A program made the translations under genes and the position numbers. 64,000 nt of DNA from Candidatus Niyogibacteria bacterium (GTDB taxonomy: Bacteria; Patescibacteriota; Minisyncoccia; HO2-45-28): assembly GCA_016432485.1 (NCBI GenBank), contig CP066691.1:77466-141465 (forward strand), in the 5' to 3' direction. The notes beneath the pieces are model-generated. The model was not told the origin of the DNA and did no database searches. It saw only the letters and a program-made list of their open reading frames with translations. Below, piece by piece: positions 15,215 through 48,140 of this stretch (position 1 is its first letter; each line of letters starts with the position of its first letter).

Positions 15215-15224
15215 TTTTTATATA

Positions 15225-15518: not shown

Positions 15519-15589
15519 GTATAAATAGGTCGGAAAAGGTATCTTGGGCGACCTACTCTATATTGTCCCCCGTCAATTAGAGCTAACCA

Positions 15590-15652
15590 AATAAAATTAT
15601 TCTAATTTCTAATTGCTCTAATTATTCTAATCAATTAGAATAATTAGAAATT
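15590..15652. promoter_or_regulatory. Array of TTCTAATT/AATTAGAA 8-mers forming overlapping palindromes (includes the perfect IR ttattctaat-ca-attagaataa) immediately upstream of the nuclease gene
   Basis: taaaattattctaatttctaattgctctaattattctaatcaattagaataattagaaattATG, read directly. Confidence 0.5.
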
Positions 15653-16837: not shown

Positions 16838-16911
16838 TCCACCATTTTACGTTTTTTTAACCTCTCGGCAGTTTGACCTTCTGCCATTTATTTTGCTAAA
16901 ATTTACCCATA

Positions 16912-18252
16912 ATGCCGGATATAGCCCGTATTCCTCCCCAAAATCTTGAAGCCGAGATGTCTGCGCTTGGCGCTTTGATGCTTGACGCTAATGCCGCGTT
17001 TAAAGTTATTGATTATCTGCGCCCCAAAGATTTTTATCGTCCGAATAATAAAACGATATACGAAACAATTCTCGAACTTATTGAGAAAAGAGAACCCGTT
17101 GATATGGTTTCGATCGCAAACCGCCTTCAGGAAAAAAACAATCTGGAAGCCGTCGGCGGGAAAGCCTATTTGACCGATCTTGTTAATTCAATTCCCACGG
17201 CCGCCAACATAGGCCATTACGCGGAAATCGTCCACAAAAAAGGCGTGATGCGTGAATTGTTGGAGGCTTCCCAGCATATAAACGATCTGGGATATAAAGA
17301 GGAAGAAAGCGTTGATTATCTGCTTGACGAAGCCGAGCGCAAAATTTTCTCCATTTCTCAAGCTTCTTTAAAACAGCGGTTCGTTTCTGTGGGGTCGGCT
17401 TTGGGTGAGGCTTGGGAGAGAATAGACCGCCTGCATAAAAATAAAGGAGAATTGCGCGGAGTGCCCACCGGTTTTGCCGATCTGGATAATATTCTTTCCG
17501 GGTTCCAGTCTTCTGATCTCATAGTTCTTGCCTCCAGGCCCTCGCTTGGAAAAACTTCTTTGGCTTTGGATATTGCCCGAAACGCCGCGACAAAGCATAA
17601 TGTTCCGGTAGGCATTTTTTCGCTTGAAATGTCGGCACAGGATTTGATTGACCGTTTTATCGTTGCCGATGCCGATATTGATTTATGGAAATTAAGAACC
17701 GGCCGGCTTTCCGAGGAAAGCGATGATTTCGCTAAAATCGGTTCGGCTCTTGAAAGGCTTTCCAAGGCCCCTATTTTTATTGATGACGAGGCCTCAAACA
17801 ATATTTTACAAATGCGGGCCATGGCCAGGCGTCTGCAGGCCGACAAAGGTCTCGGTTTAATAGTGGTTGATTACCTCCAGCTGATGCAGCCGAGAGTCCA
17901 AAGCGATAATATGGTTCAGCAGATAACCGAAATATCCCGTTCGCTTAAAGCTTTAGCCAAAGAATTGAACGTTCCGGTTTTGGCCTTGTCCCAGCTTTCA
18001 CGGGCCGTCGAACAGCGTCACCCGCCAGTCCCCCGTCTTTCGGATTTACGCGATTCGGGGAGTATAGAACAAGATGCGGACGTTGTTATGTTTATTTATC
18101 GCGAGGATAAATATAAGCAATCAAGCGAACGGCAAAATCAGGCCGATATTTTGATTCAAAAACATAGAAACGGTCCTTTGGGCCAAGTAACCCTTTATTT
18201 CAATCAGCATAAAACCAGTTTTTCAAGTTTTGCCAAGGGAGGGGGATATTAA
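16912..18252 (+). CDS. dnaB: Replicative DNA helicase
   Basis: N-terminal PPQNLEAEMSALGALML; Walker A SRPSLGKTSLAL; RecA-like C-terminal domain. Confidence 0.9.
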   Translation: MPDIARIPPQNLEAEMSALGALMLDANAAFKVIDYLRPKDFYRPNNKTIYETILELIEKREPVDMVSIANRLQEKNNLEAVGGKAYLTDLVNSIPTAANIGHYAEIVHKKGVMRELLEASQHINDLGYKEEESVDYLLDEAERKIFSISQASLKQRFVSVGSALGEAWERIDRLHKNKGELRGVPTGFADLDNILSGFQSSDLIVLASRPSLGKTSLALDIARNAATKHNVPVGIFSLEMSAQDLIDRFIVADADIDLWKLRTGRLSEESDDFAKIGSALERLSKAPIFIDDEASNNILQMRAMARRLQADKGLGLIVVDYLQLMQPRVQSDNMVQQITEISRSLKALAKELNVPVLALSQLSRAVEQRHPPVPRLSDLRDSGSIEQDADVVMFIYREDKYKQSSERQNQADILIQKHRNGPLGQVTLYFNQHKTSFSSFAKGGGY

Positions 18253-18256
18253 AATT

Positions 18257-18862
18257 ATGAGACCCCAAGTTGTTGAGAAATTAACCAGAATTTTTTCCAT
18301 GATGCCCGGTATAGGTCTTAGGCAGGCGTCTCGTTTTGCCTACTGGCTTGTGGATGCCGATAAATCCCTTGTAGAAGGCCTAAAATTGGCCCTAGACGAG
18401 CTGAAAAGCGTTAAAAGGTGCGATACCTGCTTTAGGGCCTATTCAGGGCAAAATTCCTGTTCCATATGCTTGGATGGCTTAAGGGACGATTCTAAGGTCG
18501 CGGTGGTTGAAAAAGACACGGATTTGGAGGCGATGGAAAAATCAGGGATTTATGACGGCCGTTACCATGTTTTGGGCGGGCTTTTATCAGTGCTTGACGC
18601 TCAAAGCCGAGATCGGCTGCGTCTGAAAGAGATTTTCAGCCGTATAAAGAAAGACGGTAGTATTCGGGAGGTTATTCTTGCTTTAAGCGTTACGCCCGAG
18701 GGCGAATTCAGTTCGCGTTACATTGAAAAAATTTTAGAGCCGCTGGCATCTTCCGGGCGCGAAATAAAAATAACGCGGCTCGGCCGCGGGCTTTCGTCCG
18801 GCGCCGAACTCGAATATTTAAATAAAGAAACGCTTAAAAACGCCTTAGAAAACAGGAAATGA
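18257..18862 (+). CDS. recR: Recombination protein RecR
   Basis: MMPGIGLRQASRFAYWL HhH, CxxC…CxxC zinc finger (CDTCFRAYSGQNSCSIC), Toprim. Confidence 0.85.
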   Translation: MRPQVVEKLTRIFSMMPGIGLRQASRFAYWLVDADKSLVEGLKLALDELKSVKRCDTCFRAYSGQNSCSICLDGLRDDSKVAVVEKDTDLEAMEKSGIYDGRYHVLGGLLSVLDAQSRDRLRLKEIFSRIKKDGSIREVILALSVTPEGEFSSRYIEKILEPLASSGREIKITRLGRGLSSGAELEYLNKETLKNALENRK

Positions 18863-19642
18863 TTTGTAAAATGTTTTGTCCCGGAAACGAAGGTCAATGT
18901 AATCCACGTTGCCGAATTTTTCTTTCGGAATATTATTTATGAATATGGCCAGATTTTCGCTTGCGCGGTCAAAATCCGTTTCAGCGTCGACTATAATTTT
19001 AAGCCCGTTTTCAGAATAAAGCCAAAATTCCGGCCCGGTCTTAATTTCAATATTTTTTATTGAAAATCCGCGGTCTTCTTCCAGGCGTCGGACGAAAGCA
19101 TTCAAATTTATAAAAATCTGCTCGTCCATTATTCTTGAACCTAATTCAAGAGCGATTTGGCGCTCATCTTTTATTTTTAACAGCAATTCTCCCAAAAAAA
19201 GAGGCGCCTCCTGGAAAATAATTCCTCCGCTGTCTATGTAAAAACATTTTTGACCGCACCAGACCGCCCAATTATCCCTCTCCCCTATTTGTATTTCCAC
19301 GGATCTCTGCCAGATTTTTCTGGATATTTCAATTTGATTTATGGCCGAGAATTGTTTTTTCAAATCCTCGGCGAGATTTTCAGCGCTGAAAAAAATAATG
19401 TTTTCTTTGGGCCACAAAGACAGAAACCCCCTGTTTAAAATTTGATTGACGTAATTTCTGACATCCTCAGCCGAAATTCGTTCGTTGCCGCGAACCTCTA
19501 TTTTTGTTATACGCAATATTTTGTTTTCGGCGTAAACGAAAATGACCAAAACCGTAATGAGCGCCGCGAGAGTAAATGCAAAACGCCTTAAAAAAAGCAG
19601 GCGTTTATGCCGCTTGAATTTGTGCGCTATTTCGTTAGGCAT
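18845..19642 (-). CDS. FtsQ/DivIB-like cell division protein (TM + POTRA)
   Basis: N-terminal TM helix followed by ITKIEVRGNERISAEDVRNYV, a POTRA-like segment. Confidence 0.55.
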   Translation of the reverse strand: MPNEIAHKFKRHKRLLFLRRFAFTLAALITVLVIFVYAENKILRITKIEVRGNERISAEDVRNYVNQILNRGFLSLWPKENIIFFSAENLAEDLKKQFSAINQIEISRKIWQRSVEIQIGERDNWAVWCGQKCFYIDSGGIIFQEAPLFLGELLLKIKDERQIALELGSRIMDEQIFINLNAFVRRLEEDRGFSIKNIEIKTGPEFWLYSENGLKIIVDAETDFDRASENLAIFINNIPKEKFGNVDYIDLRFRDKTFYKSFPVF

Positions 19643-19652
19643 GGATATAAAT

Positions 19653-20924
19653 TTATTCTTTGGGGTTTATTGAATCAAAACCGGTATATTTTTGTAAAAC
19701 TTTCGGCACTGCCACCGATCCGTCTCGGCGCTGATTATTTTCTAAAATAGAAATCAAAATTCTGGGGGTTGCGATGGCGGTGTTGTTGAGCGAATAGCAA
19801 AATTTTGTCTGATTGTTTCCTATTTTATAGCGTATGCCAAGCCGGCGCGTTTGAAAATCATGATAATAGGAAGATGAATGCGATTCGCGATAACGCCGTT
19901 CCGAAGGAATCCAGACCTCGATATCGTAAGTTTTGACATGCGCTCTGCCTATATCGCCTCCGCTAAGAGTAATAACTCGGTAAGGCAGATTTAGAGACTG
20001 GACCATTTCTTCCGCGTTTAAAGTCAATTCTTCGTGGAGTTTCACTGAATCCTGGTGGTCGGCGGCGCTCAAGATAAGCTGTTCTATTTTATAAAATTCG
20101 TGCAGCCGATATACGCCTTTTACGTCTTTGCCGTAAGAGCCGGCCTCTCTCCTGAAACACGGCGAAAAAGCAACATATTTTTTCGGTAATTCTTCTTCAG
20201 ACAGGATTTCGTCTGAATGCATGCCCATCATCGGAATTTCGGCGGTGGCCGAGAGATAAAGTTCGTCCTGCGTTTTATAAACATCTTCCCTAGATTGCGG
20301 AAAATGCCCCGACCCGTAAAAATTTTCTTCTTTTATCAGCGTTGGCGCGAGAATCGGCGTATATCCTTTGTTTCTGATTTTATCCAATACAAAAAGCCAA
20401 ATGGCCTGGGACAGCAAAACCGCTTCATTTTTTAGAAAATAACCTCTGAATCCGGAAACTTTGGTGCCTCTTTCAAGGTCAACCAAATCAAGCTTTTCCA
20501 TAAGGACGAGGTGGTTAAGGGGCTCAAAATCAAAGACTGGAATGTTTCCCCATTTTCGTTCTTCTCTGGCGTCCCTTTCATCAACGCCTTCGGGGACGGA
20601 GGGGTCGGGGATATTCGGGACGTCATACATCAGGCGGCGCCATTCTGAATCCAATTTTTTGAATTCATATTCTTTTTTAGAAAGTAAGTCCTTGAATTCC
20701 CGCAGATTTTTGATTGCCGATTCTTTTTCGCCCTCATCTTCTATGGTTGCTATGTGGTCGGAGGCTTTGTTTTGTTTGGCCCTAAGCTCCTCTGTTTCGG
20801 CCATTACCTTCCGTCTTTCCTCGTCTAAGGTCAGGAATCCGTCAATATCAAATTCAAGACGCTTTTTTCGCGCGGCCTGTTTTATTAAATCCGGGTTTTC
20901 GCGGATAAACTTGATGTCTAACAT
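19653..20924 (-). CDS. serS: Seryl-tRNA synthetase
   Basis: N-terminal coiled-coil arm (MLDIKFIRENPD…) and class II core motifs. Confidence 0.9.
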   Translation of the reverse strand: MLDIKFIRENPDLIKQAARKKRLEFDIDGFLTLDEERRKVMAETEELRAKQNKASDHIATIEDEGEKESAIKNLREFKDLLSKKEYEFKKLDSEWRRLMYDVPNIPDPSVPEGVDERDAREERKWGNIPVFDFEPLNHLVLMEKLDLVDLERGTKVSGFRGYFLKNEAVLLSQAIWLFVLDKIRNKGYTPILAPTLIKEENFYGSGHFPQSREDVYKTQDELYLSATAEIPMMGMHSDEILSEEELPKKYVAFSPCFRREAGSYGKDVKGVYRLHEFYKIEQLILSAADHQDSVKLHEELTLNAEEMVQSLNLPYRVITLSGGDIGRAHVKTYDIEVWIPSERRYRESHSSSYYHDFQTRRLGIRYKIGNNQTKFCYSLNNTAIATPRILISILENNQRRDGSVAVPKVLQKYTGFDSINPKE

Positions 20925-20933
20925 TTATTTAAA

Positions 20934-22085
20934 TTATACCAATTTTTTTAACGCAATTTCCATAGCCGCTTTGCGGGGGCTGATTTTTCTTCTTATGGAC
21001 GTTTTTAAGACCAAATCCACTCCGCCACCTACTTTTTCTTTGACCAATTTAAACATTTTTTCAGCATTGTATCCTTTATATTCGGAATATGAGGATATGA
21101 CCCCGCCGGCATTGGCAATGATATCGGGCACGATTAGAACTCCCCTTCTCCAAAGTTCTTCCTCAATGTTTTCGCGCATGGGAATATTCGCGCCCTCAAC
21201 TATTATTTTGGCTTTTATTGATTTTTTATTTGTGTCGTTGATAACATCCGTAACCGACGCCGGAATTAAAATATCAATTTTTAAAGCGAAAAAACTTTTG
21301 CGTGAAATCGGACGGCCCTTTTCGCATTCTTCAAGCGATTTTCCGCAGAACTTCACTTTTTTAATGTCATTTTCATTGAGTCCCCTATCGTTATATATCG
21401 CGCCGTGCCTGTCGGCTACCGCAATTATGCGGGCTCCCATAGCGCGTAAATGTTTGAAAGCGAAACTGCCTACGTTTCCGAACCCGTCAATCGCGACCGA
21501 AGCGTCTTTTATATTCAGGCCTCTTATTTTTGCGGCAATCCGCGCGGCTTCAGCCACTCCAAATCCCGTGCTGCCCAATTCATGCGGAAGTCCGCCGAGC
21601 TCGGCCGGCTTCCCGGTAGCCGATTTTTTGTCGCGCGCGGCTTCAACGAACCAGCGCATTTCCCTTTCGCCTGTATTTATGTCCGGCCCCGCGATATATT
21701 TTGAAATTAAAAATGGTTTAATCGCCCGAGCGAAGTTTTGAACAAATTTCTTTTTTAACGCTTTTTGCCCTTTTTTGGACAAAGTCCGACTTTGTCCACT
21801 TTGTCCGGATGGAGGCCAAACGATGCCGGCTTTGGCTCCCCCAAACGGCAAACCGGCCAATGCGTTTTTAAAAGTCATGGCGCGCGCGAGCCGAAAGACC
21901 TCTTCTTCCGAAACATCCGGCGTCATTCTTACGCCTCCCTTCCCCGGTCCGAGTTTCGTATTATCTATAACCAAAAATGCCCGCATATTTATTTTCGGGT
22001 CATAAATTTTAACTACATATTCCGGACCGATATTATCTTTCTCTGTTTTCATTTGAAATAATAAGTTTTTTAAATTCTTCGACAT
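20934..22085 (-). CDS. Glu/Leu/Phe/Val dehydrogenase family protein (Leu/Val-dehydrogenase-like); carries an in-frame 9-bp tandem repeat
   Basis: GPGKGGVRM and GGAKAGIV motifs. The SGQSGQS insert is encoded by (GGACAAAGT)n at 21777-21809. Confidence 0.75.
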   Translation of the reverse strand: MSKNLKNLLFQMKTEKDNIGPEYVVKIYDPKINMRAFLVIDNTKLGPGKGGVRMTPDVSEEEVFRLARAMTFKNALAGLPFGGAKAGIVWPPSGQSGQSRTLSKKGQKALKKKFVQNFARAIKPFLISKYIAGPDINTGEREMRWFVEAARDKKSATGKPAELGGLPHELGSTGFGVAEAARIAAKIRGLNIKDASVAIDGFGNVGSFAFKHLRAMGARIIAVADRHGAIYNDRGLNENDIKKVKFCGKSLEECEKGRPISRKSFFALKIDILIPASVTDVINDTNKKSIKAKIIVEGANIPMRENIEEELWRRGVLIVPDIIANAGGVISSYSEYKGYNAEKMFKLVKEKVGGGVDLVLKTSIRRKISPRKAAMEIALKKLV

Positions 22086-22124
22086 TTTTTATTGCTTCAA
22101 ACATGGCCATAAGCGTTTTGACTG

Positions 22125-24554
22125 TTATATTTTATGCCCGCCGAATACGGCGCGGAGCGTTGAAAGAATTTTTCCGGTAAATGACGGGCTCTTTTTTGAG
22201 CGTACACGGAAAAGATAAGACCTCTTGATAATTGGCGCGGGAACGCCGAGTTCTTTGGCGGTTTTTACCGTCCATTCTCCTTCTCCTGTTTGAGCCACCA
22301 CGCCAGACGCTTTTTTTAAGTCCTCTCCATACTTTTTGAATCCTTCCTCCAGCCACCCCGTAAGCCGCGAGGTAATAATGCTGTTTTGGTTGTACACACT
22401 CGCGACATCTTTAAGATGAAACTCAAACGGCGCCTTTTTTAATACTGAAAATCCTTCGGCCAGCGCCTGCATCATTCCGTACTCAATGCCGTTATGAATC
22501 ATTTTTGTAAAATGCCCGGCCCCAATTTTTCCCATATATCCGGAGGTCGTATCCGACATGGCGTCAAAAATCGGTTTGATTTTTTCATATATTTTTTTAT
22601 TTCCTCCCGCCATAATAGCAAATTTCCCAAGCTGAATGGAAGTCGGCCCGCCCGATACGCCAACATCAAGAAAATGAATTCCTTTTGCTCCCAATTTTAT
22701 TCCTCGGCGAACAGAGTCCTTATAGAAAGAGTTTCCTCCGTCAATTATTATATCCCCTTTCTTGAGTATCCGCGCGAGGCCTTCTTTTCCGAAAATGATT
22801 TCGTCTACGGGCTTTCCCGCGGGCCTGCCCGCCGTAGCTTTACTTTGCCCGTCCGAAGTCTTTGACGAAGGCGGGGCGGAGGCGGGAACCATAAGCCATA
22901 TAACGCGCGGAGTGGAAAGTTTCTTAACAAATTCCGGAATAGAATACGCGCCGATAATTCCATTTTTTTCAAGTTTTTTCGTAGTATCGGGAAAGTGGTC
23001 CATGCCGACAACGCGCCATCCTTTGGCTGAAAGTCGTATCGCGAGATTAGCGCCCATTTTCCCCAAACCGATAATACCGATCTCGCTCATGCGCGTTTCC
23101 GCGTTTTTATCCCTGACGCTCTGCGTATTTTGCAAGATTGCCGGCCGAGGAGTGGTCCCGGGCTTATATTTTGCGAGCGAAACGGTATTTTTATCCCACG
23201 CGCTTTCGATCGGATCGATAAATTTCCATAGCGCCGCCACCTCCCCGGGCGCTATAAAAAATGCCCGATTGCCTTCCATGGCTGCGTTGAAAATTTTTGC
23301 GTATTCTTCCACATATTGCGCCTTTTCTTTTTTTTCGTACAAAAAGAAAGAGAAGGCGCGCCTTTCAAGGGTTTGTTCAAAACCGGGTTTTTTCATCCAA
23401 AAGTAAATAATTATTTCATCATTTGGTTCAAGCCGAAAAACTATTTTATTTGGCTCGTGCGGTCCGACCTCGCAAAGATGACAAATAGCCGGATGTTTTA
23501 GCGTGAGCACTATTTCTTTACGCGCCTCGGCCATCCGTTTCCCCGCTTCCATGAATATCGGGATTCCTTTCCATCGAGGATAGCGGAGCTCGGTTTTGAG
23601 CGCAAAATATGTATCGGTGTTTGAGGCGGGACGAACTCCTTTAATATTCTCATAACCCCGATATTGCGCGCGATAGGTATTGTTTCGGACTGTTTCGGTT
23701 GTCCAGGGTGCTAAAGTTTCTAAAATTTTTGCGCGGTTTTGCCGGATAGAGTCCGCCTCTTTATTTTTAGGATATTCCATGGCAAGTACCGCAAGCATGA
23801 TTAAAAGATGATTTTGTCCGACATCGCGCAGCGCCCCGACAGCGTCGTAAAAACTCCCGCGCTCTTCCACGCCGATTGATTCATAAAGGCGAATATCAAT
23901 TCGCTCAATCATCGTATTATCCCACGCATTTTCAAAAAGGTTATTGGAAAATCTGAAATTTTCTATTCCCTGCAATATTTCTTTAAAAAGATAGTGGTCA
24001 ATTCTGTAAATCTGTTCCTCTTTGAAATATGAGGAAAGAAGCGACTGGAGCTTCCTCGCGCTTTCGGAGTCCTTTCCAAAAGGTTTTTCAATAAGCAGGC
24101 GGCTCCAGCCAAGATTTCCTCCGCAAGGAAGGTTTAATTTTACTGAGGCGAGATTCTTAAAAATTATCTCGTAAGATGACGGAGGAACGGCAAGATAAAA
24201 TAATTTATTGGCGCAAACACCCCAAGACGATTCGGCGCCCGCTATTTTTTCAAAAAGAATCCGAAAGGATTTTTTGTCCTCAAAAGTTCCGGCATGATAT
24301 GAAAATGTTTCAAAGAAACGCGAAAAATCTCTCTCTTTTATTGCCGCCCCTCCGCGCTTTATAAGGGTTTTACGGATAAATTTTTTAAATTCTTCGCGGG
24401 AAAGATTTCTTCGCGAAAATCCCATCACGGAAAAGCGGTCCGGAAAACGGCCTTGTCGGAAAAGGTGCCATAAAGAGGGAATAATTTTTTTAGCCGCAAG
24501 ATCGCCGGTCGCGCCGAATATGGTTAATATGGTCGGCGAATTTTTAATTATCAC
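22125..24554 (-). CDS. Glucose-6-phosphate dehydrogenase fused to a short-form 6-phosphogluconate dehydrogenase-like domain (zwf-gnd fusion)
   Basis: N-terminus has FGATGDLAAKK and RIDHYLFKE (G6PD). The C-terminal ~320 aa have IGLGKMGANLAIRL and the 6PGDH NAD-binding fold. One continuous ORF of 809 aa, including a ~24-aa palindromic-element insert at 22824-22886. Confidence 0.75.
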   Translation of the reverse strand: MIIKNSPTILTIFGATGDLAAKKIIPSLWHLFRQGRFPDRFSVMGFSRRNLSREEFKKFIRKTLIKRGGAAIKERDFSRFFETFSYHAGTFEDKKSFRILFEKIAGAESSWGVCANKLFYLAVPPSSYEIIFKNLASVKLNLPCGGNLGWSRLLIEKPFGKDSESARKLQSLLSSYFKEEQIYRIDHYLFKEILQGIENFRFSNNLFENAWDNTMIERIDIRLYESIGVEERGSFYDAVGALRDVGQNHLLIMLAVLAMEYPKNKEADSIRQNRAKILETLAPWTTETVRNNTYRAQYRGYENIKGVRPASNTDTYFALKTELRYPRWKGIPIFMEAGKRMAEARKEIVLTLKHPAICHLCEVGPHEPNKIVFRLEPNDEIIIYFWMKKPGFEQTLERRAFSFFLYEKKEKAQYVEEYAKIFNAAMEGNRAFFIAPGEVAALWKFIDPIESAWDKNTVSLAKYKPGTTPRPAILQNTQSVRDKNAETRMSEIGIIGLGKMGANLAIRLSAKGWRVVGMDHFPDTTKKLEKNGIIGAYSIPEFVKKLSTPRVIWLMVPASAPPSSKTSDGQSKATAGRPAGKPVDEIIFGKEGLARILKKGDIIIDGGNSFYKDSVRRGIKLGAKGIHFLDVGVSGGPTSIQLGKFAIMAGGNKKIYEKIKPIFDAMSDTTSGYMGKIGAGHFTKMIHNGIEYGMMQALAEGFSVLKKAPFEFHLKDVASVYNQNSIITSRLTGWLEEGFKKYGEDLKKASGVVAQTGEGEWTVKTAKELGVPAPIIKRSYLFRVRSKKSPSFTGKILSTLRAVFGGHKI

Positions 24555-24569
24555 GGTTTATATATTCTC

Positions 24570-25340
24570 CTAGAGATAATCCAATAAACGGTCATAATCT
24601 ATAAATTGAAAAATCTTATAACCGTAAGAAATAAGAAGGCCGATATTGCCAGAAACCAAAAGTATGCCGAGGAAAATAAGAAAGATGCCGCCGATTACGG
24701 AAACGATATTAAGATATTTAGATATATTTTGGACATAACGGGAGGCCGATCCAATGCCTGCGGCAATAAGTAAAAATGGTATCGCGAGTCCCGCCGAGAA
24801 AATAGTAAGCAATAATCCGCCCTGGAGCGCGCTGGTTGAGGTTGAGGCCAATAAGAGCACCGAGCCTAAGATCGGGCCAACGCACGGCGTCCACCCAAAC
24901 GCAAAAGCGCTGCCTAAAATGAACGAGTTGGACGCGCGCCCTCGTTTCAGCAAAGCGGGAGTCTTAATTTGAAATTCGCGCTGTAAAAAAGGCAATTTCA
25001 AAATATTGAGCATAAACAGTCCGAAGATGATAACGAAAATTCCGCCGATTCTTCCAAGCCATAATCTATAAGGAGCAAGAAACCTGGCGCCGACAAAACC
25101 GATGAGCGTTCCCATAACGATAAAAACCGCGCTAAACCCAAGCATAAAGAAAAAGCCGTTGAGAAAAATTTTCCATCGGGCCTGCTTGGCTTTAGCCGGG
25201 TCCTTGAGGTCTTCTAAAGAGGAGCCGCTGATGAAACCCAAATATCCCGGCACCAAAGGAAGGGTGCATGGGGCAAGAAATGTAAGAATGCCGGCAATAA
25301 AAGCCGGAACTATTAACGCGGCAATTGAAAGCTCAAGCAC
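24570..25340 (-). CDS. ccdA: Cytochrome c biogenesis/thiol-disulfide transporter CcdA/DsbD-family membrane protein
   Basis: TFLAPCTLPLVPGYLGFISG and a second conserved Cys (WTPCVGP). Confidence 0.75.
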   Translation of the reverse strand: MLELSIAALIVPAFIAGILTFLAPCTLPLVPGYLGFISGSSLEDLKDPAKAKQARWKIFLNGFFFMLGFSAVFIVMGTLIGFVGARFLAPYRLWLGRIGGIFVIIFGLFMLNILKLPFLQREFQIKTPALLKRGRASNSFILGSAFAFGWTPCVGPILGSVLLLASTSTSALQGGLLLTIFSAGLAIPFLLIAAGIGSASRYVQNISKYLNIVSVIGGIFLIFLGILLVSGNIGLLISYGYKIFQFIDYDRLLDYL

Positions 25341-25797
25341 GATGGTTTTTATAAAATTTTATAAGCGCTTTACGTTGAACGGGCTCTAAGTGAATCGAGG
25401 GTCTTTGTTTTTTAATAAATTTTTCTGCATTCGCCGGAGACATCCCGCGTGTTTTTATAAGATATGCCGCCATCATAGTGGGCGCTCTGCCGTGGCCGTT
25501 TTTGCAGTGCAGATATATCTTTTGCTTCATAGCGACCAAATTTTTAAGGGTCAAGACGCCGAATTCCAGTTGTTCCTGTTTGGGAGCGGTGTGGTTTTTG
25601 ACGGGAATCCACGCGTAAAAATAAGCCCCGAAAGGAGAATCAATCTTCTCTTCCTCAAGAGAAACATCGGCCATTATGCCCTTTTTCTTAAGTTCCCCGT
25701 TAAAATGCGTCTGACAGCACAAATTCGTGCCGATATAAATTCCGTCGGTGATATAGTTATATTCAAATTTAGGAGCTCCGTGTTTTTCTTTAGACAT
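25333..25797 (-). CDS. Dual-specificity/tyrosine phosphatase-like protein (HCxxGxxR)
   Basis: HCKNGHGRAPTMMAAYL catalytic loop. Confidence 0.6.
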   Translation of the reverse strand: MSKEKHGAPKFEYNYITDGIYIGTNLCCQTHFNGELKKKGIMADVSLEEEKIDSPFGAYFYAWIPVKNHTAPKQEQLEFGVLTLKNLVAMKQKIYLHCKNGHGRAPTMMAAYLIKTRGMSPANAEKFIKKQRPSIHLEPVQRKALIKFYKNHRA

Positions 25798-25821
25798 ATT
25801 TTTTACACATCTCCCGCTTTT

Positions 25822-26355
25822 TTATTTGTTAATCAGTTCTTCTATTTTACTTTTAATCTCATCCAATTTCATCGGTCCTCTCTTGTGAATAACTATGTTT
25901 TTTTCAGGGTCAACAAATATTGTTTCCGGCATTGAAAATCCGCCGATTGATTTATAAAAAGAATCAGATGGGTCGAGCAAGAAAACCAGCTGGTTGGTGG
26001 TTCCTTGCCGGTCGGTATATCCCTTTGCGACACCCAATGATTCGGCGCGGTCAATAGCGATAATCACGACTTTATCGCCAAACTCCTTTTGTGCTCTTGC
26101 GAAATCAGGAAGCTCTTCGCGGCAAAACGGACACCATGCCGCCCATGAGTTTATAACCAAAGGTTTGCCCGAAAAATCCGTGAGTCGAACGGTATTCCCG
26201 CCGTAATCCTGTAAAGCAAAATCGGGGGCTTTTTCGGATTGAGCCGTTTGAGCCGTTTGTTTTGATTCTTCGGGGGCGTTTTTCGCGCGAATTACAAGCC
26301 ATCCGACGCCCCCCAGAATCAAAAGCCCTATGATTATTGCGAATAATTTATTCAT
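25822..26355 (-). CDS. TlpA/ResA-like thiol:disulfide oxidoreductase (secreted, thioredoxin fold)
   Basis: WAAWCPFCREELP CxxC motif and an N-terminal signal/TM. Start set at MNKLFAII. Confidence 0.75.
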   Translation of the reverse strand: MNKLFAIIIGLLILGGVGWLVIRAKNAPEESKQTAQTAQSEKAPDFALQDYGGNTVRLTDFSGKPLVINSWAAWCPFCREELPDFARAQKEFGDKVVIIAIDRAESLGVAKGYTDRQGTTNQLVFLLDPSDSFYKSIGGFSMPETIFVDPEKNIVIHKRGPMKLDEIKSKIEELINK

Positions 26356-26369
26356 TTTTATTATCGCGG

Positions 26370-26531
26370 CTATTTGCAACCGCAGTCGCAATGGCCGCCT
26401 TCGTGGTGTTCGTGGCCGCAATGCTCGCATTTCTTATGCTCCACTGGATGATTGTGTTCTTTATGCTCATCACAAGGGCACTCGCAAGCCATGCATTTTT
26501 CGTGTTTTTCGTCGTGTGTATCTTCGTGCAT
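26370..26531 (-). CDS. Unannotated 53-aa Cys/His-rich putative metal-binding protein (MHEDTHDEKHEKCMACECPCDEHKEHNHPVEHKKCEHCGHEHHEGGHCDCGCK)
   Basis: Hand-translated from the minus strand; absent from the ORF track because it is under 60 aa. It has 10 Cys and 11 His in CxC/CxxC/HxxH patterns. It sits between the thioredoxin and tlpA genes on the same strand. The two plus-strand ORFs over it look spurious. Confidence 0.55.
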   Translation of the reverse strand: MHEDTHDEKHEKCMACECPCDEHKEHNHPVEHKKCEHCGHEHHEGGHCDCGCK

Positions 26532-26577
26532 ATTATTTTTTTTAATTAATTAATGATTTGTTTCGGGCAGCCCGACC

Positions 26578-26835
26578 TTATTTTGTGCCTGCCCATTCCT
26601 TTAATTCTTCATAGGGGGCCTCTCCGCAGATAAAGGCGTCAGAGTCGGTATTAATGAAAAACGGAACGCCGCCGCACCGGCCCTTATCATATTCTTTCAT
26701 CTTTTTTGCGTTTTCTTCGTTATGCCAAACTTCATATTTTTCAACTTTCAAACCGGCTTCTTTTTCCAGCCGCTCCACCAACGGCATCATCTTAATGCAG
26801 TGCGGACACTCTTTTCCGTAAAAATCTATAAGCAT
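26578..26835 (-). CDS. Thioredoxin/glutaredoxin-like protein (CPHC active site)
   Basis: FYGKECPHCIKMMP. Confidence 0.7.
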   Translation of the reverse strand: MLIDFYGKECPHCIKMMPLVERLEKEAGLKVEKYEVWHNEENAKKMKEYDKGRCGGVPFFINTDSDAFICGEAPYEELKEWAGTK

Positions 26836-26845
26836 AATTGATTTT

Positions 26846-27880
26846 TTATTTTAATAATTCTGTATCAGGGTGAGCGGCAACCCACGAAAACCAAAATGAG
26901 CCAAATGGGTTGATGCGCAGAAGCGTGCCATCAGTTTTTTTCTCGAAAATCCGCACGGCGTCAATTTCTTTTTCGTACTTCGCAATAATCGTTTTTCCCT
27001 CAAAGCTATCTTCAATTTCACCGACTTTTTTCACCGCCTCCGGCCAATATGCCTTAGCTTTTCCATTTATTACGATGCCGAGAACAAAGTCCTTATCGCT
27101 TAAGCGGTCATCTTTTTTACCAACTGGGAAATAAGTTCCCGGGGTGGTGTAGTAATCGCCGTACGGGTCCTGCCCGTAAAACCGCGTTGTTCCCGTATCT
27201 CGCGAGAGCACTTCTCCTGTCGGGTGGAGCTTCCGCCATTCGCCGAATCGAATCTGGTCTGACTGCAAAACGGCGAGATGCGTTCCGGTTTTTTCTCCGA
27301 CAATCGCTTCGCCCAAAATCTGCGACCACAATGAATCGGTTTTTCGGTCATACATTACCAAGTTTGAATTCCATAATTTACCCGAAGTGCCGAATTCCAC
27401 TCGTTCTCCCTCCACAACGGGGTCAAAAACTATTCCGGACAAGCATAGCGGGCAATAGGTTACAAGAACCCGTTTCCCATTTATGGTGTCATTTACAATC
27501 TCGTGCCAGACCAAAATTTGAAACGGATAAAAACGGCTGACATTGCCCATTTCAAGCGCAAGGCCTGGTTCGGCGTCCGATAACTGCTTCGATGCCTCAC
27601 CAACCGAAATAAATTTGGGATTATCAATGGAAGGAATCCCGTCTTTTGGCGGACCTCCGCCGAGGATAGAGTCCAGAGGAACGCTATGTTTTACGCCGTC
27701 AGTAACCATAATTTCTTTTTCTACTTCACTGCCGTTGTTTTGAATCATAATTATTTCTTTTTTAACCTCTCCACCTTGAGGCAAATTAAAGTCGTTTTTA
27801 AATATAACACGGGACAGAACAAGCGCGGCTACAACCGCAACCCCAACCACTATTATAATTGTAATTACCTTTAAATTCAT
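26846..27880 (-). CDS. DUF3179 family protein
   Basis: Conserved TYCPLC motif and an N-terminal TM. Start set at MNLKV to avoid overlap with the upstream gene. Confidence 0.55.
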   Translation of the reverse strand: MNLKVITIIIVVGVAVVAALVLSRVIFKNDFNLPQGGEVKKEIIMIQNNGSEVEKEIMVTDGVKHSVPLDSILGGGPPKDGIPSIDNPKFISVGEASKQLSDAEPGLALEMGNVSRFYPFQILVWHEIVNDTINGKRVLVTYCPLCLSGIVFDPVVEGERVEFGTSGKLWNSNLVMYDRKTDSLWSQILGEAIVGEKTGTHLAVLQSDQIRFGEWRKLHPTGEVLSRDTGTTRFYGQDPYGDYYTTPGTYFPVGKKDDRLSDKDFVLGIVINGKAKAYWPEAVKKVGEIEDSFEGKTIIAKYEKEIDAVRIFEKKTDGTLLRINPFGSFWFSWVAAHPDTELLK

Positions 27881-27884
27881 CTTT

Positions 27885-28418
27885 TTATTCAATAAGCGAG
27901 GCAACGTCTGATTCCCGAATGTCTCCGGGGATGGTGCGGACCAGATTACCGTTTATGTCTATCAAGAAATGCGTGTTGGTGTACTGAATGCCGAAAACAT
28001 TTGAGGCCCGGCTGAAAGGGTCAAGCGCTATCGGAAAATTTATTCCGCGAGATTCTATAAAATCCGCGACGGTTGACTCATTTTCGTGCAGATTAACTCC
28101 TATCACTTCCACTTTGTCTTTATATTTTTCATAAAAACGATTTAGATTCGGCATGTCTCTTCGGCAATTCGGGCACCACGAAGCCCAAAAATCAACCACC
28201 ACCGGCTTCTTGCCCCTAAACTCCGATAGCGTTATGGTTCCTCCGCCCAGCTTTTGCAGCTTAAAATCCGGCGCGGAGCTTTCTTGCAAAGCTGTTCCGG
28301 ACGCCCCCGAATGCACCGAGGCGCTTTGTGAGGCGGTATTGCCGCCATATGACCTCCCAAACGCTATCAGGCCGATTGCGGCAATAATCGCGCCTATAAT
28401 TAATATTTTGTTTCTCAT
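27885..28418 (-). CDS. TlpA-like thiol:disulfide oxidoreductase (redoxin)
   Basis: FWASWCPNCRRDMP. Confidence 0.75.
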   Translation of the reverse strand: MRNKILIIGAIIAAIGLIAFGRSYGGNTASQSASVHSGASGTALQESSAPDFKLQKLGGGTITLSEFRGKKPVVVDFWASWCPNCRRDMPNLNRFYEKYKDKVEVIGVNLHENESTVADFIESRGINFPIALDPFSRASNVFGIQYTNTHFLIDINGNLVRTIPGDIRESDVASLIE

Positions 28419-28433
28419 TTAGATTTAATAATT

Positions 28434-28745
28434 TTATTTAATAATTTGCATCAGCTGTTTGACCATGGAATTATCCTTTTTTAATTTATAACAAACCATT
28501 TGTCCCATTCTTGTTTTTTCGACCAGTTCAAGCATTTCCAGAACTCTCAACTGCTGGGATGCCGCGGATACCGTAATATCAAAAATGTTCGCCACATCGG
28601 TTACGCAAATATCGTGGTTCTCCGAAAGCAATTTGAAAATCCGAAATCTGCCAGGATCTCCCAGCGCGCCAAGAATGAGGGGCATCCGGTCCATATCGCT
28701 TGACAATTCTTTTTTTATCCTGTTTACCTGTTCTTTTGTAAGCAT
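28434..28745 (-). CDS. ArsR/SmtB-family transcriptional regulator (two-Cys type)
   Basis: wHTH VTDVANIFDITVSAASQQLRVLEMLELV. Cys in ICVTD and in C-terminal VCYK. Confidence 0.8.
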   Translation of the reverse strand: MLTKEQVNRIKKELSSDMDRMPLILGALGDPGRFRIFKLLSENHDICVTDVANIFDITVSAASQQLRVLEMLELVEKTRMGQMVCYKLKKDNSMVKQLMQIIK

Positions 28746-28803
28746 GTTAATTAAGTAATTGCATAATTACTTAATCCTACTCCCAAGAAACTTTTGTGTC
28801 AAC
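28746..28803 (-). promoter_or_regulatory. Promoter of the arsR-redoxin operon (minus strand: -35 TTGACA, 17-nt spacer, -10 TAGGAT) followed by an 11-bp inverted-repeat operator attaagtaatt-N4-aattacttaat that overlaps the start codon
   Basis: Read on the reverse complement of 28746-28803. Confidence 0.55.
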
Positions 28804-28835
28804 CCTGCCTGCCGGCAGACAGGTGTGGATAAGCC

Positions 28836-28861
28836 CCGCCACTTAAAAAGAGCGCCCGAAA
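28836..28861 (-). terminator. Rho-independent terminator after the aroE-like gene (stem agagcgc/gcgctct + T-tract on the minus strand)
   Basis: aaagagcgcccgaaaggagcgctct…, read in minus orientation, is followed by ttttaagt. Confidence 0.5.
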
Positions 28862-28877
28862 GGAGCGCTCTATAAAT

Positions 28878-29933
28878 TTAAGAACCCGCGGCTTGCTTCA
28901 TAACTTCGGCCACTTGTTCCTTGGTGATATTTTTTGCTTCCAAAACTTTTTGATTCACGAGCCAGAAGGCCTCTATTGCCTGATTCAAGACCATCGGTTT
29001 GCCGTCAAGCGTGGAAAACCCGGCCAATTTTGCCTCGCGAATGGTTGCGGTATCTTGATTGCGCAGCATTACATCCGAAATAATTGTTTCTCTATGCATA
29101 CTCTCCATAATTTGTTTTGCTTCTTTGAGATTATCGGCAATATGTTCGGGAGTTGCCGGCAACTCAATCGTTCCAAGAGCCGAATATTGGTCAAGGGGTG
29201 ATGTAGGATCATCGATTACGGAAATGACGAGGTCCGCATCGCGCACTTCATCCTGAATTAGTTCTCGTCCTCCAAACCGCGCGATATTTTTGCGGAAGTA
29301 AGTATTGACGCGCTCAGCTAAGTCCTCCGCTTTAGCCGCGGTTCTATTCAAAATCATAAGGTTGGCCCCTTCTTTAGCAAGAGCAAATGAGATTGCATTG
29401 GCAGTACCGCCGCCTCCTAAAATCACAACCTTTTTACCGCCTATTTGTTCTCCTCGCTCGCCTAATTTTTCTTTCACGCTTTGCGCATAACCAAGACCGT
29501 CTGTATTATAGCCCCTCAATATTCCGTTTTCTTCTTTAACCACAACATTTATGGCTTGCATCTCGCGCGCCAAAGGATCGACTTCGTCAATAATTTTCCA
29601 CGCGCGATCCTTAAATCCCACTCCCACGTCGCCACCAAGATACTTTCGGTCTTTTTTGAAAGAATTGAATATTACTTCAGAATTTTCCGGATCGCCGGCT
29701 AAACGAATGTTTCTGGTGTCAAAGCCGAAATGTTCATAGACGGCATTCCAAAGAAATGGCGTTCTTGCCTGGTAATCTTTATTGGCAATGCCAAGCGCAA
29801 ATTCCGGAAAATCAAGCATTTTGGGATTTTCTTTTGCATTTTCCCCGATTTTTACAATGCCCGATTCAATTAAAGTGTGCACTTGTTCCATATGTTGTTT
29901 TTCCTCCGGGTGTTCCATAGAAAATTTTATCAT
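28878..29933 (-). CDS. Shikimate/quinate dehydrogenase family protein (AroE-like)
   Basis: GYNTDGLG motif and GGGGTANAI Rossmann. Confidence 0.6.
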   Translation of the reverse strand: MIKFSMEHPEEKQHMEQVHTLIESGIVKIGENAKENPKMLDFPEFALGIANKDYQARTPFLWNAVYEHFGFDTRNIRLAGDPENSEVIFNSFKKDRKYLGGDVGVGFKDRAWKIIDEVDPLAREMQAINVVVKEENGILRGYNTDGLGYAQSVKEKLGERGEQIGGKKVVILGGGGTANAISFALAKEGANLMILNRTAAKAEDLAERVNTYFRKNIARFGGRELIQDEVRDADLVISVIDDPTSPLDQYSALGTIELPATPEHIADNLKEAKQIMESMHRETIISDVMLRNQDTATIREAKLAGFSTLDGKPMVLNQAIEAFWLVNQKVLEAKNITKEQVAEVMKQAAGS

Positions 29934-30328: not shown

Positions 30329-30389
30329 TTATAAAATAATATCACCATTTGAACATACATACAAATAGTGATATTTTAAAACGCGAAAA

Positions 30390-31184: not shown

Positions 31185-31283
31185 GCTCGCCCCCCTTTTT
31201 GAAATGTCAAAAAACCACTTGAATACCTATTCAAATGATAATCCGAAAGCGAGAATTTGTCAAGCGTCTTAAAAATTTTAAAT

Positions 31284-35296: not shown

Positions 35297-36823
35297 TTAT
35301 TCCGTACAGCAGGAAAGTTTGTTGACATCCTTTCGGAATGACTGCGCGACCCATTTGATTGATTCGGCCATAGTGGGAAAGATAAATGTATTTTCAATTA
35401 TATCATCTAATTTCATACGATGCTTGATAATGAAACTGGCAACGGAAATGATTTCATCGGCTCTGGCGCCCGCCATATGGATACCGACGACTTCCTCGGT
35501 TTTTGAATCAATTACCATTTTAATTAAGCCGTCCGCCGCTTCTAGAATATGCGCCTTTGGCACAAGTTCCAAACTCAAGGTGCGGCAGCTGCATACTAGC
35601 CCCGTTTGCTTGACGATTTGAGCGTCAGTCAGGCCGACGCTCGCCAGCGGCGGGTCGGTGAAGATGGCGTGGGGTGCCGCCCGGAAATCAACTTTGATGC
35701 CCTTATTTTCCAAAAGATTAGACGCGGCAACAAAACCCTCTCTGCCCGCGACGGTTTCCAGTTTAAGATTAACCTCTTCGCCCGACTGATCCACCACATC
35801 GCCGGCGGCAAATATGTGAGGTAGGTCTGTTTGTAGAAATTCATTGGTTGCGACTCCGCCTCTTTCGCCGACACGAACACCGATATGCTCAAGATTTAAT
35901 GATTGGGTATTGGCTCTTACTCCTGATGCAACCAGTATTTTTTCTGCCTCAATAATAATTTCTTTCTTGCCCGCCGTAGCTTTACTGCGTCCTTCCGTAG
36001 CCTTTGGCGAAGGAGGAGCGGAGGCGGGGTCGCCAACCTCGACAGTTGCTTTAATAAGATTGCCGTTATGCTCAACACCCTTGGTTTTAGCGGAAGTATA
36101 AATGGTTGTGCCCTCTTTTTCTAGTTTCTTTTTCAGAAAATCTGAAAGCTCCGGCTCTTCGCGGTCGGCTATTTTGTCCGCATACTGCAAAACCGTAACC
36201 TTCGTTCCGAAACGATTGTAAATTTGGGAAAATTCAAGACCCAACGGCCCCCCGCCCAAAATAATCATTGATTTCGGCAACTCCTTCAAACTCAAGGCCT
36301 CGATATTGGTGAGATACGCGACTTTATCCAGCCCATCAATCGGAGGAATAAAAGTGGAAGAACCGGTTGAAATCAAAAATTTTTCTCCCGTAATTTTCTC
36401 CCCGCCCGCCGTAGCTTTAGCGGAGGCGGGGCCATTTATTTCAACCGTGTGCTCGTCAATAAATTTCGCGTCTCCTTCTTTAAGAGTTACATAAACCAGA
36501 AATTTAAGAGTTCCGGCATACGCCTTTCCCTGAAGTTTGCGGATTAGCGCGTCTTTGGATTCAACGACTTTTTTAAAATCCAAATCCGGCACACTGCCGG
36601 CTACGCCGTCATACTTGCTGTAACGCGCGTTCCAATAGGATTCGGCCACAGTAAGCAATCTTTTTGACGGCATACATCCGACATTAATGCAGGTTCCGCC
36701 CAAAGGAACTTTTCCGCCCGATATCATTAAAGTTTTAATCTTCAAAGAATCCGCCTTGATGGCAGCCGCGAAACCCGCGGCTCCGCCCCCGATGATGATA
36801 AACTGATAGTCGTAATTTTTCAT
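35297..36823 (-). CDS. Mercuric reductase-like pyridine nucleotide-disulfide oxidoreductase (no NmerA domain) carrying two in-frame palindromic-element insertions
   Basis: GGTCINVGCMPSK active site and a C-terminal vicinal Cys pair …KLSCCTE, which is a MerA hallmark. Inserts PASAKATAGG (36402-36432) and ASAPPSPKATEGRSKATAGKK (35969-36029). Confidence 0.65.
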   Translation of the reverse strand: MKNYDYQFIIIGGGAAGFAAAIKADSLKIKTLMISGGKVPLGGTCINVGCMPSKRLLTVAESYWNARYSKYDGVAGSVPDLDFKKVVESKDALIRKLQGKAYAGTLKFLVYVTLKEGDAKFIDEHTVEINGPASAKATAGGEKITGEKFLISTGSSTFIPPIDGLDKVAYLTNIEALSLKELPKSMIILGGGPLGLEFSQIYNRFGTKVTVLQYADKIADREEPELSDFLKKKLEKEGTTIYTSAKTKGVEHNGNLIKATVEVGDPASAPPSPKATEGRSKATAGKKEIIIEAEKILVASGVRANTQSLNLEHIGVRVGERGGVATNEFLQTDLPHIFAAGDVVDQSGEEVNLKLETVAGREGFVAASNLLENKGIKVDFRAAPHAIFTDPPLASVGLTDAQIVKQTGLVCSCRTLSLELVPKAHILEAADGLIKMVIDSKTEEVVGIHMAGARADEIISVASFIIKHRMKLDDIIENTFIFPTMAESIKWVAQSFRKDVNKLSCCTE

Positions 36824-44949: not shown

Positions 44950-45420
44950 TAGCAGAAATTTCTGACACTGACGAACGCCCCGCCGCCCGCCTCCGCTAAC
45001 GCTCCGGCGGCAACCTCGCAGAAAAATATCCTCCGCAATTCTTTTTTTGCGCGCGCCCGATTTTTTCCTAAACAAGGAAGAGGATATTTTCTGCTCGGTT
45101 CCGCCCTCCAAGTATTTGGGCGGAGCGGCGGGGCTTCCATTCGCTTGGACGGCGCGGAATTCCCCCCTTGAACCCCCCTTCCGCCGCGCCCGAGCCGAAG
45201 CGAAGCCCCGTCGCCTGCTCTTTTAAGAGCAGAAGCCAGCAAAAAAGTTTTCTTCACCTTTTAGAAGAAAAAATTTATGGCGCGCGAAAATCAAAAATTG
45301 AGAAGAAAACTTTTTTGCTGGCTGGCGAGCGTCAGCGAGCGGCGGCGGGGCGAAGCGTCAGGCGTTCCGTTCAAAATAGGTTCGGATTATTTTCAGAGTA
45401 CTCCACAAGACTCCAAAATT
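44950..45420. repeat. GC-rich block containing several degenerate copies of the CCGCC…GGCGG palindromic element family
   Basis: For example, ccccgccgcccgcctccgctaacgctccggcgg (44988-45010) is approximately the reverse complement of the 36402 copy. ggagcggcggggc is repeated at 45122 and 45333. The ORFs predicted here (44949..45257, 45168..45437) look spurious. Confidence 0.5.
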
Positions 45421-47760: not shown

Positions 47761-47804
47761 TTACATTATAGCATATTGAGCTTTATTTTGTCCCGTTCCC
47801 TTGT

Positions 47805-47832
47805 CCGCCATAGCTTTAGCGACGGCGGAGCC
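47805..47832. repeat. Copy of the palindromic element (gtccgccatagctttagcgacggcggag) in the 16S 3' trailer
   Basis: Same CCGCC-[AG]TAGCTTTAGCG-GGCGG architecture as the in-gene copies. Confidence 0.5.
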
Positions 47833-48140
47833 CCGATTTAAGGCTCTATGGGCGATACCTTATCCGCCAATGAGGCGGAAACGACCTTGCTAACAGCTAA
47901 AAGCTATAAGCTAAAAGCTGTGTTAGCTAAGTAAATAATCCACGACCAGCTTCCGCTAGCCGTGCCTTGTTACGACTTAGTCCCTGTCACCGAGCTCACC
48001 TTAGCCGAGCACCACTTTTACAACTATTGTTCTTACAAAAGAACGAGTTATGCAGTGCTACTTGGCGCTTATATTACAAGCGCTTTTCGCAAAAGTGGTG
48101 CTCGGTTTCGGGTGTTCCCGGCTTCCTTGACTTGACGGGC

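Follow-up and report, generated by a model that had tools for sequence, protein, structure and literature searches.

A composite hairpin repeat inserted in frame in the zwf-gnd fusion gene of a Candidatus Niyogibacteria genome

An in-frame block in the zwf-gnd gene

A 64-kb stretch of a Candidatus Niyogibacteria genome, referred to here as the window, was analysed for a short GC-rich element lying inside the gnd part of a zwf-gnd gene. The source is a metagenome-assembled genome (MAG) of the candidate phyla radiation (CPR), and copy counts for the window cover 64 kb of that genome. The host open reading frame (ORF; 22125..24554, minus strand, 809 aa) joins G6PD_N/G6PD_C with NAD_binding_2/6PGD domains and is therefore a zwf-gnd fusion, whose product combines glucose-6-phosphate dehydrogenase with a short-chain 6-phosphogluconate dehydrogenase (6PGDH). 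The top Foldseek matches of the C-terminal (gnd) domain were the short tetrameric 6PGDH structures 10gw, 6vpb and 4e21. An identical gene was found in 4 independent Logan assemblies from different runs, each matching the window at 100%. The fusion with a 6PGDH domain of the short tetrameric type is kept across many Patescibacteria lineages, as seen in 120 orthologues of 776-876 aa that share 55-75% identity.

The element, copy A, occupies 22824..22886 on the plus strand and reads CCTGCCCGCCGTAGCTTTACTTTGCCCGTCCGAAGTCTTTGACGAAGGCGGGGCGGAGGCGGG, exactly as quoted in the original prediction, which had been made from the sequence alone. Its description there as a GC-rich palindromic mini-element was borne out by a motif frequency above that of shuffled sequence and by 85% identity to a second copy in the window. 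In an alignment of the 120 fused orthologues the closest, P0002 and P0003 (75% identity), read LMVP-AGKP-VDE without an insert, and the insert is absent from the site in most of the others. At the codon level P0003 has ATG GTT CCG GCA GGA AAG against ATG GTT (63 nt) CCC GCG GGA AAG in the window, and 22824-22886 is therefore exactly the extra block of 21 codons. The 63 nt are thus a true block insertion of 30 (+33) nt, in frame, as had been predicted for the gnd domain. Two details of that prediction had to be corrected. Read on the minus strand the block adds 21 aa (PASAPPSSKTSDGQSKATAGR) rather than ~24, and it lies between LMV and PAGKPVDE rather than between MVPA and VDEII. The coding-strand context is ...VIWLMV-PASAPPSSKTSDGQSKATAGR-PAGKPVDEIIFG..., and TSDGQSK and ATAGRPAGKPVDEIIFGK are examples of peptides that span the insert.

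Alignment to orthologues, which had been proposed as the way to delimit the insert, showed that the segment is missing from the nearest and from most zwf-gnd orthologues, so that it is not an ancestral peptide that they share. A few distant orthologues do carry sequence here. In P0004 and P0008-10 a single 30-nt extra unit (CCCGCCTCCGTCAAGACCTCGGCGGGCAAG in P0004, CCCGCCTTCGCTAAAGCTACGGCGGGCAGG in P0008) lies at exactly the gnd site of copy A, and P0004, P0008-10, P0098 and P0102 have ~10 additional residues at this position. Single units at the same site in P0004 and P0008-10 therefore point either to a hot spot or to an old insertion that has since been removed precisely on many occasions.

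Copies in the merA-like gene

The two copies that had been predicted in merA were found in a merA-like gene at 35297..36823 (minus strand), which encodes a 508-aa pyridine nucleotide-disulphide oxidoreductase with a Pyr_redox_2 domain and a C-terminal CC motif. Copy B (35966..36028, plus strand; peptide PASAPPSPKATEGRSKATAGK) is again a 63-nt composite, with a nested unit at 35985-36017, and matches copy A at 85% identity over 61 nt, the two lying in unrelated genes. Copy C (36401..36430, plus strand) is a single 30-nt unit, CCCG-CCCGCC-GTA-GC-TTTA-GC-GGA-GGCGGG, with the peptide PASAKATAGG; it scored 50 bits (E = 1e-8) with covariance model R1, which was built from 93 copies and used for searching the window. 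All three genic copies have one orientation and one frame (P-A-S-A-...-K-A-T-A-G; P-A-S-A-K-A-T-A-G).

Empty sites were also found for these copies (insertion point marked by a slash). The site of copy C is empty in P0124 (AAC GGA/GAG) and filled with the same 30 nt in P0123, that of copy B is empty in P0122 (AAT GGC/AAA GAA), and merA-like orthologues of 477-478 aa lack both blocks. The homologue P0168, at 44% identity to the window protein, carries a unit at the same turn. Comparison of filled with empty alleles revealed no target-site duplication at any of the three sites, which differ by exact 30/63-nt blocks. MITEs (miniature inverted-repeat transposable elements) are recognised by terminal inverted repeats derived from an insertion sequence together with target-site duplication, and three sites with exact blocks and no duplication set the element apart from them. 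The empty junctions computed for the restored allele join GGCTTATGGTT to CCCGCGGGAAAG; the exact 30-mer across the restored junction was not found in JGI metagenomes, a collection in which the species is perhaps not present.

Other short insert families fill turns of the same proteins in other Parcubacteria, both in merA-like proteins (P0122/L248, P0125, P0127, P0128, P0133-P0140) and in zwf-gnd orthologues (P0007, P0014, P0017, P0021, P0043, P0045, P0112). Examples are THSTSSGQAG and PSTDSASSLQAGSGQAV at the turn of copy C, the PEGVAPRPYGAG type, the PSTSLGIN type after VDEILFG, and LARRSLGEAG. It seems that in-frame mini-inserts are a general feature of these Parcubacteria lineages, with several repeat families involved.

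Anatomy of the unit

On the plus strand of the window the 30-nt unit reads C-Y-T-G / Y-CCGCC / GTA / GC / TTYA / GC / GGA / GGCGG-R. It consists of an unpaired 5' CYTG tag, a 6-bp (Y)CCGCC/GGCGG(R) stem, a 3x3 purine internal loop (RNA vs GNA), a 2-bp GC/GC helix and a TTYA loop. Composites carry, between the TTTA and the GC of one such unit, another member of the family that is 33 nt long. The outer unit of copy A is CCTG-CCCGCC-GTA-GC-TTTA^GC-GGA-GGCGGG (CCCGCCTCCGC^TAAAGCTACGGCGGGCAGG), with the nested unit at ^. This nested unit (22843..22875, plus strand) was delimited by codon alignment, appears as a nested hairpin in the minimum-free-energy fold and reads CCCGCCTTCGTCAAAGACTTCGGACGGGCAAAG, that is CTTTG-CCCGTC-CGAA-GTC-TTT-GAC-GAA-GGCGGG; it is similar to the single unit of P0004 at the same site. 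The CCCGCC…GGCGGG palindrome noted originally is present as the outer 6-bp stem, but the whole, rather than a plain palindrome, is an imperfect hairpin built as a hierarchy, in which the loop of the outer hairpin encloses another one. Nested units share the conserved core CGTAGCCTT(T)GGCGAAG, and their stems vary yet stay complementary (CCCGTC/GGCGGG, TCCTTC/GGAGGA, ACCACC/GGTGGT). The same composite architecture was found in the Bacteroidota loci L180, L188 and L197.

Structure was assessed by covariation in the 93-sequence alignment of copies. The sole stem pair left free by the search pattern was CG in 34, UA in 33, AU in 3, GC in 3, UG in 2 and unpaired in 10 of 85 distinct copies. All four Watson-Crick forms are thus taken, and the covariation score was reached by none of 500 shuffles. 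Single units fold modestly better than shuffles (z about -2.2), and the whole 96-nt region around copy A has no thermodynamic significance. Folding energies are unremarkable; the structural case stands on covariation and not on energy.

A second scan, of metagenomes and with the internal loop unconstrained (TGYCCGCCNNNGCTTYAGCNNNGGCGGR), gave at least 120 matches, and 122 metagenome copies were counted. On the 5' side the loop was GTA in 52, GAA in 30 and ATA in 22; on the 3' side it was GAA in 63, GGA in 16 and GAC in 12. It is thus a purine loop, R-N-A opposite G-N-A, in which the middle position is often pairable. The two free positions of the tag were CT in 63 and CC in 40 of the 122, and position -5 was C in 0.80 of copies. 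A GTAG tetranucleotide is present, but within the hairpin and not as an unpaired tag. The GTA/GGA variant with TTTA, present in all three genic copies of the window, made up 11/122 of this free sample, and the genic copies of the window are a genome-specific subtype.

The flanks of 215 copies (loci L125-L370) show a weak preference upstream of the tag for C at -9 (0.64, low-GC contigs) and G at -7, corresponding on the coding strand to ...AAG CCN G.. (K-P-x). Such a bias may reflect the choice of target or a longer version of the unit. No Rfam family reached its gathering threshold in the window and 18 loci, and nothing relevant was found at E <= 10 around copies. A tRNA-derived origin, considered on account of a resemblance of the core to the acceptor/D-arm, was dropped: in local alignments to the two tRNAs of the window the observed score was reached by 140/300 shuffles for tRNA-Ile, and by 9/300 for tRNA-Ala, a marginal improvement on shuffles.

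Copies outside genes in the window

The pattern CCCGCC N8-38 GGCGGG had 4 matches in the window vs 0.10 expected, and the two-anchor pattern had 3 matches vs 0 in 100 shuffles. The window holds 3 strong and 4 weaker copies in total. Among the latter, the intergenic single unit D (47800..47829, plus strand; 22.6 bits, E = 0.009; fold z = -2.2) reads CTTG-TCCGCC-ATA-GC-TTTA-GC-GAC-GGCGGA, the ATA/GAC internal-loop variant seen in 9/122 metagenome copies. It answers to the copy that had been expected near the 16S 3' end, at a distance of ~1.2 kb from that end. A short, degenerate hairpin in which tag and stem recur, CCTTA-TCCGCC-aatga-GGCGGA, lies next to it (47856..47886, plus strand; weak, 14.4 bits, E = 0.57).

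The copy expected near the tRNA cluster corresponds to copy E at 44979..45018 on the minus strand (CCGCC-GGA-GC-GTTA-GC-GGA-GGCGG), in non-coding GC-rich DNA ~230 nt downstream of tRNA-Ile; it is degenerate and weak (14.2 bits, E = 0.63). A possible further degenerate hairpin with a TCCGCC/GGCGGA stem was found at 45093..45131 on the minus strand (weak, 13.3 bits, E = 0.98).

Distribution beyond the window

One genome per species was scanned with the pattern CCGCCGTAGCTT...GCGGAGGCGG, which yielded at least 120 matches where at most about 1-5 are expected by chance (analytical estimate); 92 of the matches listed have the exact 24-nt spacing. Among the matches listed, which carry the taxon labels of the MAG records, a near-identical core is found in at least 10 bacterial phyla, an invariance partly imposed by exact-pattern searching. 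The Patescibacteria carriers among them are Saccharibacteria, Parcubacteria, Doudna-, Sungii-, Nealson-, Zambryski-, Davies-, Wildermuth-, Kuenen- and Nomurabacteria. Other listed carriers are Acidobacteriota (many copies per genome), Verrucomicrobiota, Planctomycetota, Bacteroidota, Alpha-/Gammaproteobacteria, Geobacter, Clostridia, Lentisphaeria, Actinobacteriota and Armatimonadota. One listed match is from a cultured isolate, Bradyrhizobium jicamae PAC68 (L243), nearly all others being MAGs. Further copies, on which the original prediction depended, were thus present between genes as well as in unrelated genes, and many other genomes have them too; the repeat family is far wider than the Niyogibacteria genome. 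PLSDB plasmids, INPHARED phages and 5,426 E. coli genomes gave no match, and a 14-mer scan of viral contigs gave single matches at chance level only, the pattern being too short.

In low-GC genomes in-frame copies were found in essential genes, namely rpoB, those of two tRNA synthetases (one of class I, one of class II), ATP synthase alpha/beta and NuoL, as well as in the L7/L12 hinge (2 genomes) and in P-type ATPases directly after the metal-binding domain (2 genomes), and further in a glucose/sorbosone dehydrogenase; one of the in-frame copies is that of the merA-like homologue P0168. Four of the 6 strand/frame combinations of the unit are open and all 4 are used in genes. One of these four frames, P-A-x-A-x-A-x-A-G/D-K/R, is preferred in low-GC contigs, where it accounts for 20/23 genic copies of the genome set and 21/39 of the metagenome set. 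Acidobacteriota loci often have a diverged copy in inverted orientation ahead of the unit (e.g. L130, L137), as in REPINs, the doublets of repetitive extragenic palindromic (REP) elements.

Position of the inserts in the proteins

Translation of the inserts is assumed throughout. In an AlphaFold2 model of the gnd domain (49 aligned sequences) the mean predicted local distance difference test score (pLDDT) was 90.1 and was low only at residues 75-81 and 83-91. These residues form a coil between strand 65-68 (VIWLMV) and helix 95-102, values below 50 occurring only at the insert, and in the Rossmann fold of the 6PGDH domain the site is the loop that follows strand 4. Copy A, if translated, is predicted to give a disordered 21-residue small/polar stretch. 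The merA-like model (mean pLDDT 87.0) fell below 50 only at residues 134-139 (copy C) and 267-284 (copy B), both at beta-hairpin turns. All three genic inserts are accordingly predicted to lie in disordered turns between secondary-structure elements, in keeping with the surface loops that had been expected from structure mapping.

Comparison with known elements

Rickettsia palindromic elements (RPE-1 to RPE-10) were reportedly described by Ogata et al. in 2000. They are palindromic repeats inserted in frame in protein-coding genes of reduced Rickettsia genomes, RPE-1 being ~100-150 nt long. The present element resembles them as a palindrome placed in frame in ORFs of a reduced genome, where it adds a peptide in a surface loop (here predicted), and in having copies that are also intergenic and beside RNA genes. 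It differs in host, a CPR bacterium here with others in at least 10 phyla against Rickettsia (Rickettsiales), and in being a 30-nt unit with a CYTG tag and a core found in many phyla. By its host it falls outside the RPE families, and its anatomy is nearer to REP elements. The RPE-like behaviour suggested originally holds for the in-frame palindromic insertion in loops and not for family membership. RPE-4 and RPE-6 themselves have been reclassified as CGTC-tagged REPs (PMC3733652).

REPs and REPINs, the latter being long hairpins made of two REPs in inverted orientation, are mobilised by RAYT transposases, whose genes REPs typically flank (PMC3733652, PMC3116915), and the HUH enzyme superfamily has been described (PMC6006769). 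GTAG- and CGTC-tagged REPs lie within genes, some of them for tRNA synthetases, in Opitutus terrae, Thauera, Rickettsia conorii and others, and nested palindromes occur in the REP loops of Bradyrhizobium GTAG-14 (PMC3733652). The unit shares with REPs an imperfect palindrome of 20-40 nt, one end of which bears a conserved tetranucleotide left unpaired, the absence of target duplication, nested palindromes in loops and occasional in-frame copies in genes such as those of tRNA synthetases. The likeness to REPINs is confined to the inverted doublets of the Acidobacteriota loci, the window composites being nested in the same orientation with no inverted doublet. The tag is CYTG here vs GTAG/CGTC in REPs, and RAYT was not found in the 64-kb window. 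About half of the window copies are genic whereas REPs are mostly extragenic, and the core is common to many phyla whereas REP sequences are usually lineage-specific.

Two further systems bear a more distant likeness. Palindrome-associated elements derived from IS200/IS605 are hairpin-dependent and have neither MITE-type terminal inverted repeats nor target-site duplication, features that apply to the present unit as well. IS200/IS605-type elements insert 3' of a fixed tetra- or pentanucleotide and favour the lagging-strand template. For the present unit no conserved target tetranucleotide could be defined from the flanks, the GC-skew sign test showed no significant lagging-strand bias, and there is a single hairpin vs two subterminal ones. 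The GC clusters and 'byp' elements of yeast mitochondria are short GC-rich palindromic mobile inserts, found also in coding sequence, and byp elements are skipped by the ribosome. By description these resemble the present GC-rich palindromic inserts in a comparatively AT-rich genome, coding sequence included, the difference being that the yeast elements are organellar and ribosome-skipped, whereas here the stretch is open, in frame and presumably translated.

Neither this element and its peptides nor REP-like inserts in CPR were described in the literature searched. That REPs can insert in frame is already known (PMC3733652), and by analogy the element works like a REP or RPE. It would then be a second and much broader example of the RPE phenomenon, in which reduced genomes carry selfish hairpin repeats that join proteins. 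Many unexplained low-complexity inserts of 10-20 residues in CPR proteins (PAxAKATAGK type) would be repeat-derived, and such inserts would affect alignments, phylogenies and structure prediction for CPR lineages. Being short, the unit offers a simple marker (covariance model R1) for finding them.

Mode of spread and alternative explanations

Taken together, we consider it likely that the 63 nt represent, in composite form, a REP-like hairpin repeat that is short and non-autonomous, a passenger that has spread as DNA. The unit would move through a single-strand hairpin with the enzyme supplied in trans. Its traits match those of REPs and of IS200/IS605-type elements, which suggests as a first guess an HUH/Y1 (RAYT or IS200-type) single-strand transposase as the likeliest class; drawn by analogy, this assignment is tentative and rather doubtful. 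Selection would sort the copies by length (10 or 11 codons), strand and frame (P-A-x-A-x-A-x-A-G-K/R), retaining only those that form a harmless loop at turns between secondary-structure elements, and the unit would have no functional part in the host enzyme.

Several observations weigh against this proposal. With 11 RAYT/TIRYT proteins as queries, tblastn gave no match in the 64-kb window and 1 distant match in 1.6 Mb of loci, and all-against-all clustering of 3,714 ORFs from 120 loci returned no protein family present next to copies in more than 5 loci. A mechanism acting on the lagging-strand template predicts a replication-strand bias, and GC-skew sign tests over 149 loci gave none beyond gene orientation (p = 0.41 overall, 0.42 for intergenic low-GC copies), the sole significant subset being accounted for by gene orientation. 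The flank profile has weak preferences only (C at -9, G at -7) and no fixed target. The tag is CYTG and not the GTAG or CGTC of the described REP super-families (PMC3733652). The folding energy of the composites is not significant vs shuffles (z -0.35 to -1.8). Unit variants at the gnd site differ in P0004 and P0008-10, and P0168 has a unit at the same merA site; this requires either a preference for certain sites or an ancient insertion that was precisely lost many times. The sole Y1/HUH (TIRYT-like) match in the 1.6 Mb, at L148:5636-6133 on the minus strand of the Chitinophagales MAG JBBQSW010000044.1 (E = 2.7e-9), lies ~2.5 kb from a unit, at a contig end.

The main rival is that host replication or repair pastes the copies, either by template switching or by gene conversion of short patches from a further copy, and with no dedicated enzyme; stalling at hairpins and microhomology to GC-rich targets (e.g. 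CCCGCGGG) would be the drivers. Exact 30/33-nt blocks without target-site duplication would be expected of such copying, as would the failure to find a transposase in the window or beside copies. The gnd target CCC GCG GG is palindromic and matches the 5' end of the unit (CCCGC), identical sites have been filled repeatedly in different lineages, and the one subtype in all genic copies here is what concerted evolution would give. The merA-like targets GGC/GAG and GGC/AAA, however, have no microhomology to the unit ends, and an unpaired tag and internal loop conserved across phyla resemble a protein recognition site rather than a repair by-product. We regard repair copying as unlikely. A functional role is less likely than repair copying because the closest orthologues lack the insert, as they do at all three sites, and is held to be quite improbable. 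The hairpin would in that case be a selected module, either a DNA or RNA structure for a conserved host factor or a useful flexible protein linker, and cross-phylum conservation and recurrent positions would reflect function instead of selfish spread. This would fit the near-invariant core in at least 10 phyla among the matches listed, the conservation of loop purines and tag even where the search left them free, the copy in the L7/L12 hinge, a natural flexible linker, and the adjacency of intergenic copies to RNA genes. It is at odds with the use of all 4 open frames and both strands in genes, with inserts predicted to be disordered in arbitrary turns of unrelated proteins and with the lack of an Rfam family and of a consistent genomic neighbourhood.

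That the segment is an ancestral, lineage-specific 6PGDH loop or an artefact of assembly or sequencing is already contradicted by the evidence and is highly improbable. The ~10 extra residues at the same position in P0004, P0008-10, P0098 and P0102 would suit the former, and the fact that almost all genomes with matches are MAGs would suit the latter. The gnd site of the nearest relatives is, however, empty; at the DNA level, identity to intergenic copies and to those in an unrelated gene is 85-100%; the gene is identical in the four Logan assemblies; one match is from a cultured isolate; and copies lie in frame within lineage-specific genes.

Within the REP-like reading it is quite possible, if a little short of an even chance, that the units form a third super-family of REP-like repeats, with a CYTG tag and a tandem purine (RNA/GNA) loop and with a core near-unchanged over more than 10 phyla, residing in genes of transposase-poor ultra-small CPR genomes. 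A mobilising enzyme or a host factor, widely shared and as yet unrecognised, would then have to exist, or else a 30-nt parasite would have passed between phyla repeatedly. A near-identical core over distant phyla is unusual for REPs and raises the question of a factor that recognises a hairpin with this tag and purine loop.

Other features of the window

Downstream of tRNA-Ile, the stretch 44950-45400 is non-coding, reaches a GC content of 83% in 30-nt windows and contains degenerate CCGCC/GGCGG hairpins and spurious ORFs. It could be a graveyard of decayed units. Cumulative GC skew rises up to ~20 kb and falls down to ~40 kb (window 1-20000 vs 20000-40000), alongside a switch in gene strand. 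The turn near 20 kb could mark a replication terminus or origin, or merely track gene orientation.

The 16S rRNA gene (49012-51088, minus strand) spans 2,077 nt vs a 1,533-position model because a group I intron is present (RF00028, 54.5 bits; 49874-50189, minus strand). A CCCGCC...GGCGGG hairpin at 49907-49935 was rejected as a member of the repeat family, as it sits within this intron and is taken to be part of it. An ORF for a LAGLIDADG endonuclease (PF00961, E = 2.6e-21) lies at 48209-48799 on the minus strand, ~200 nt past the 16S 3' end.

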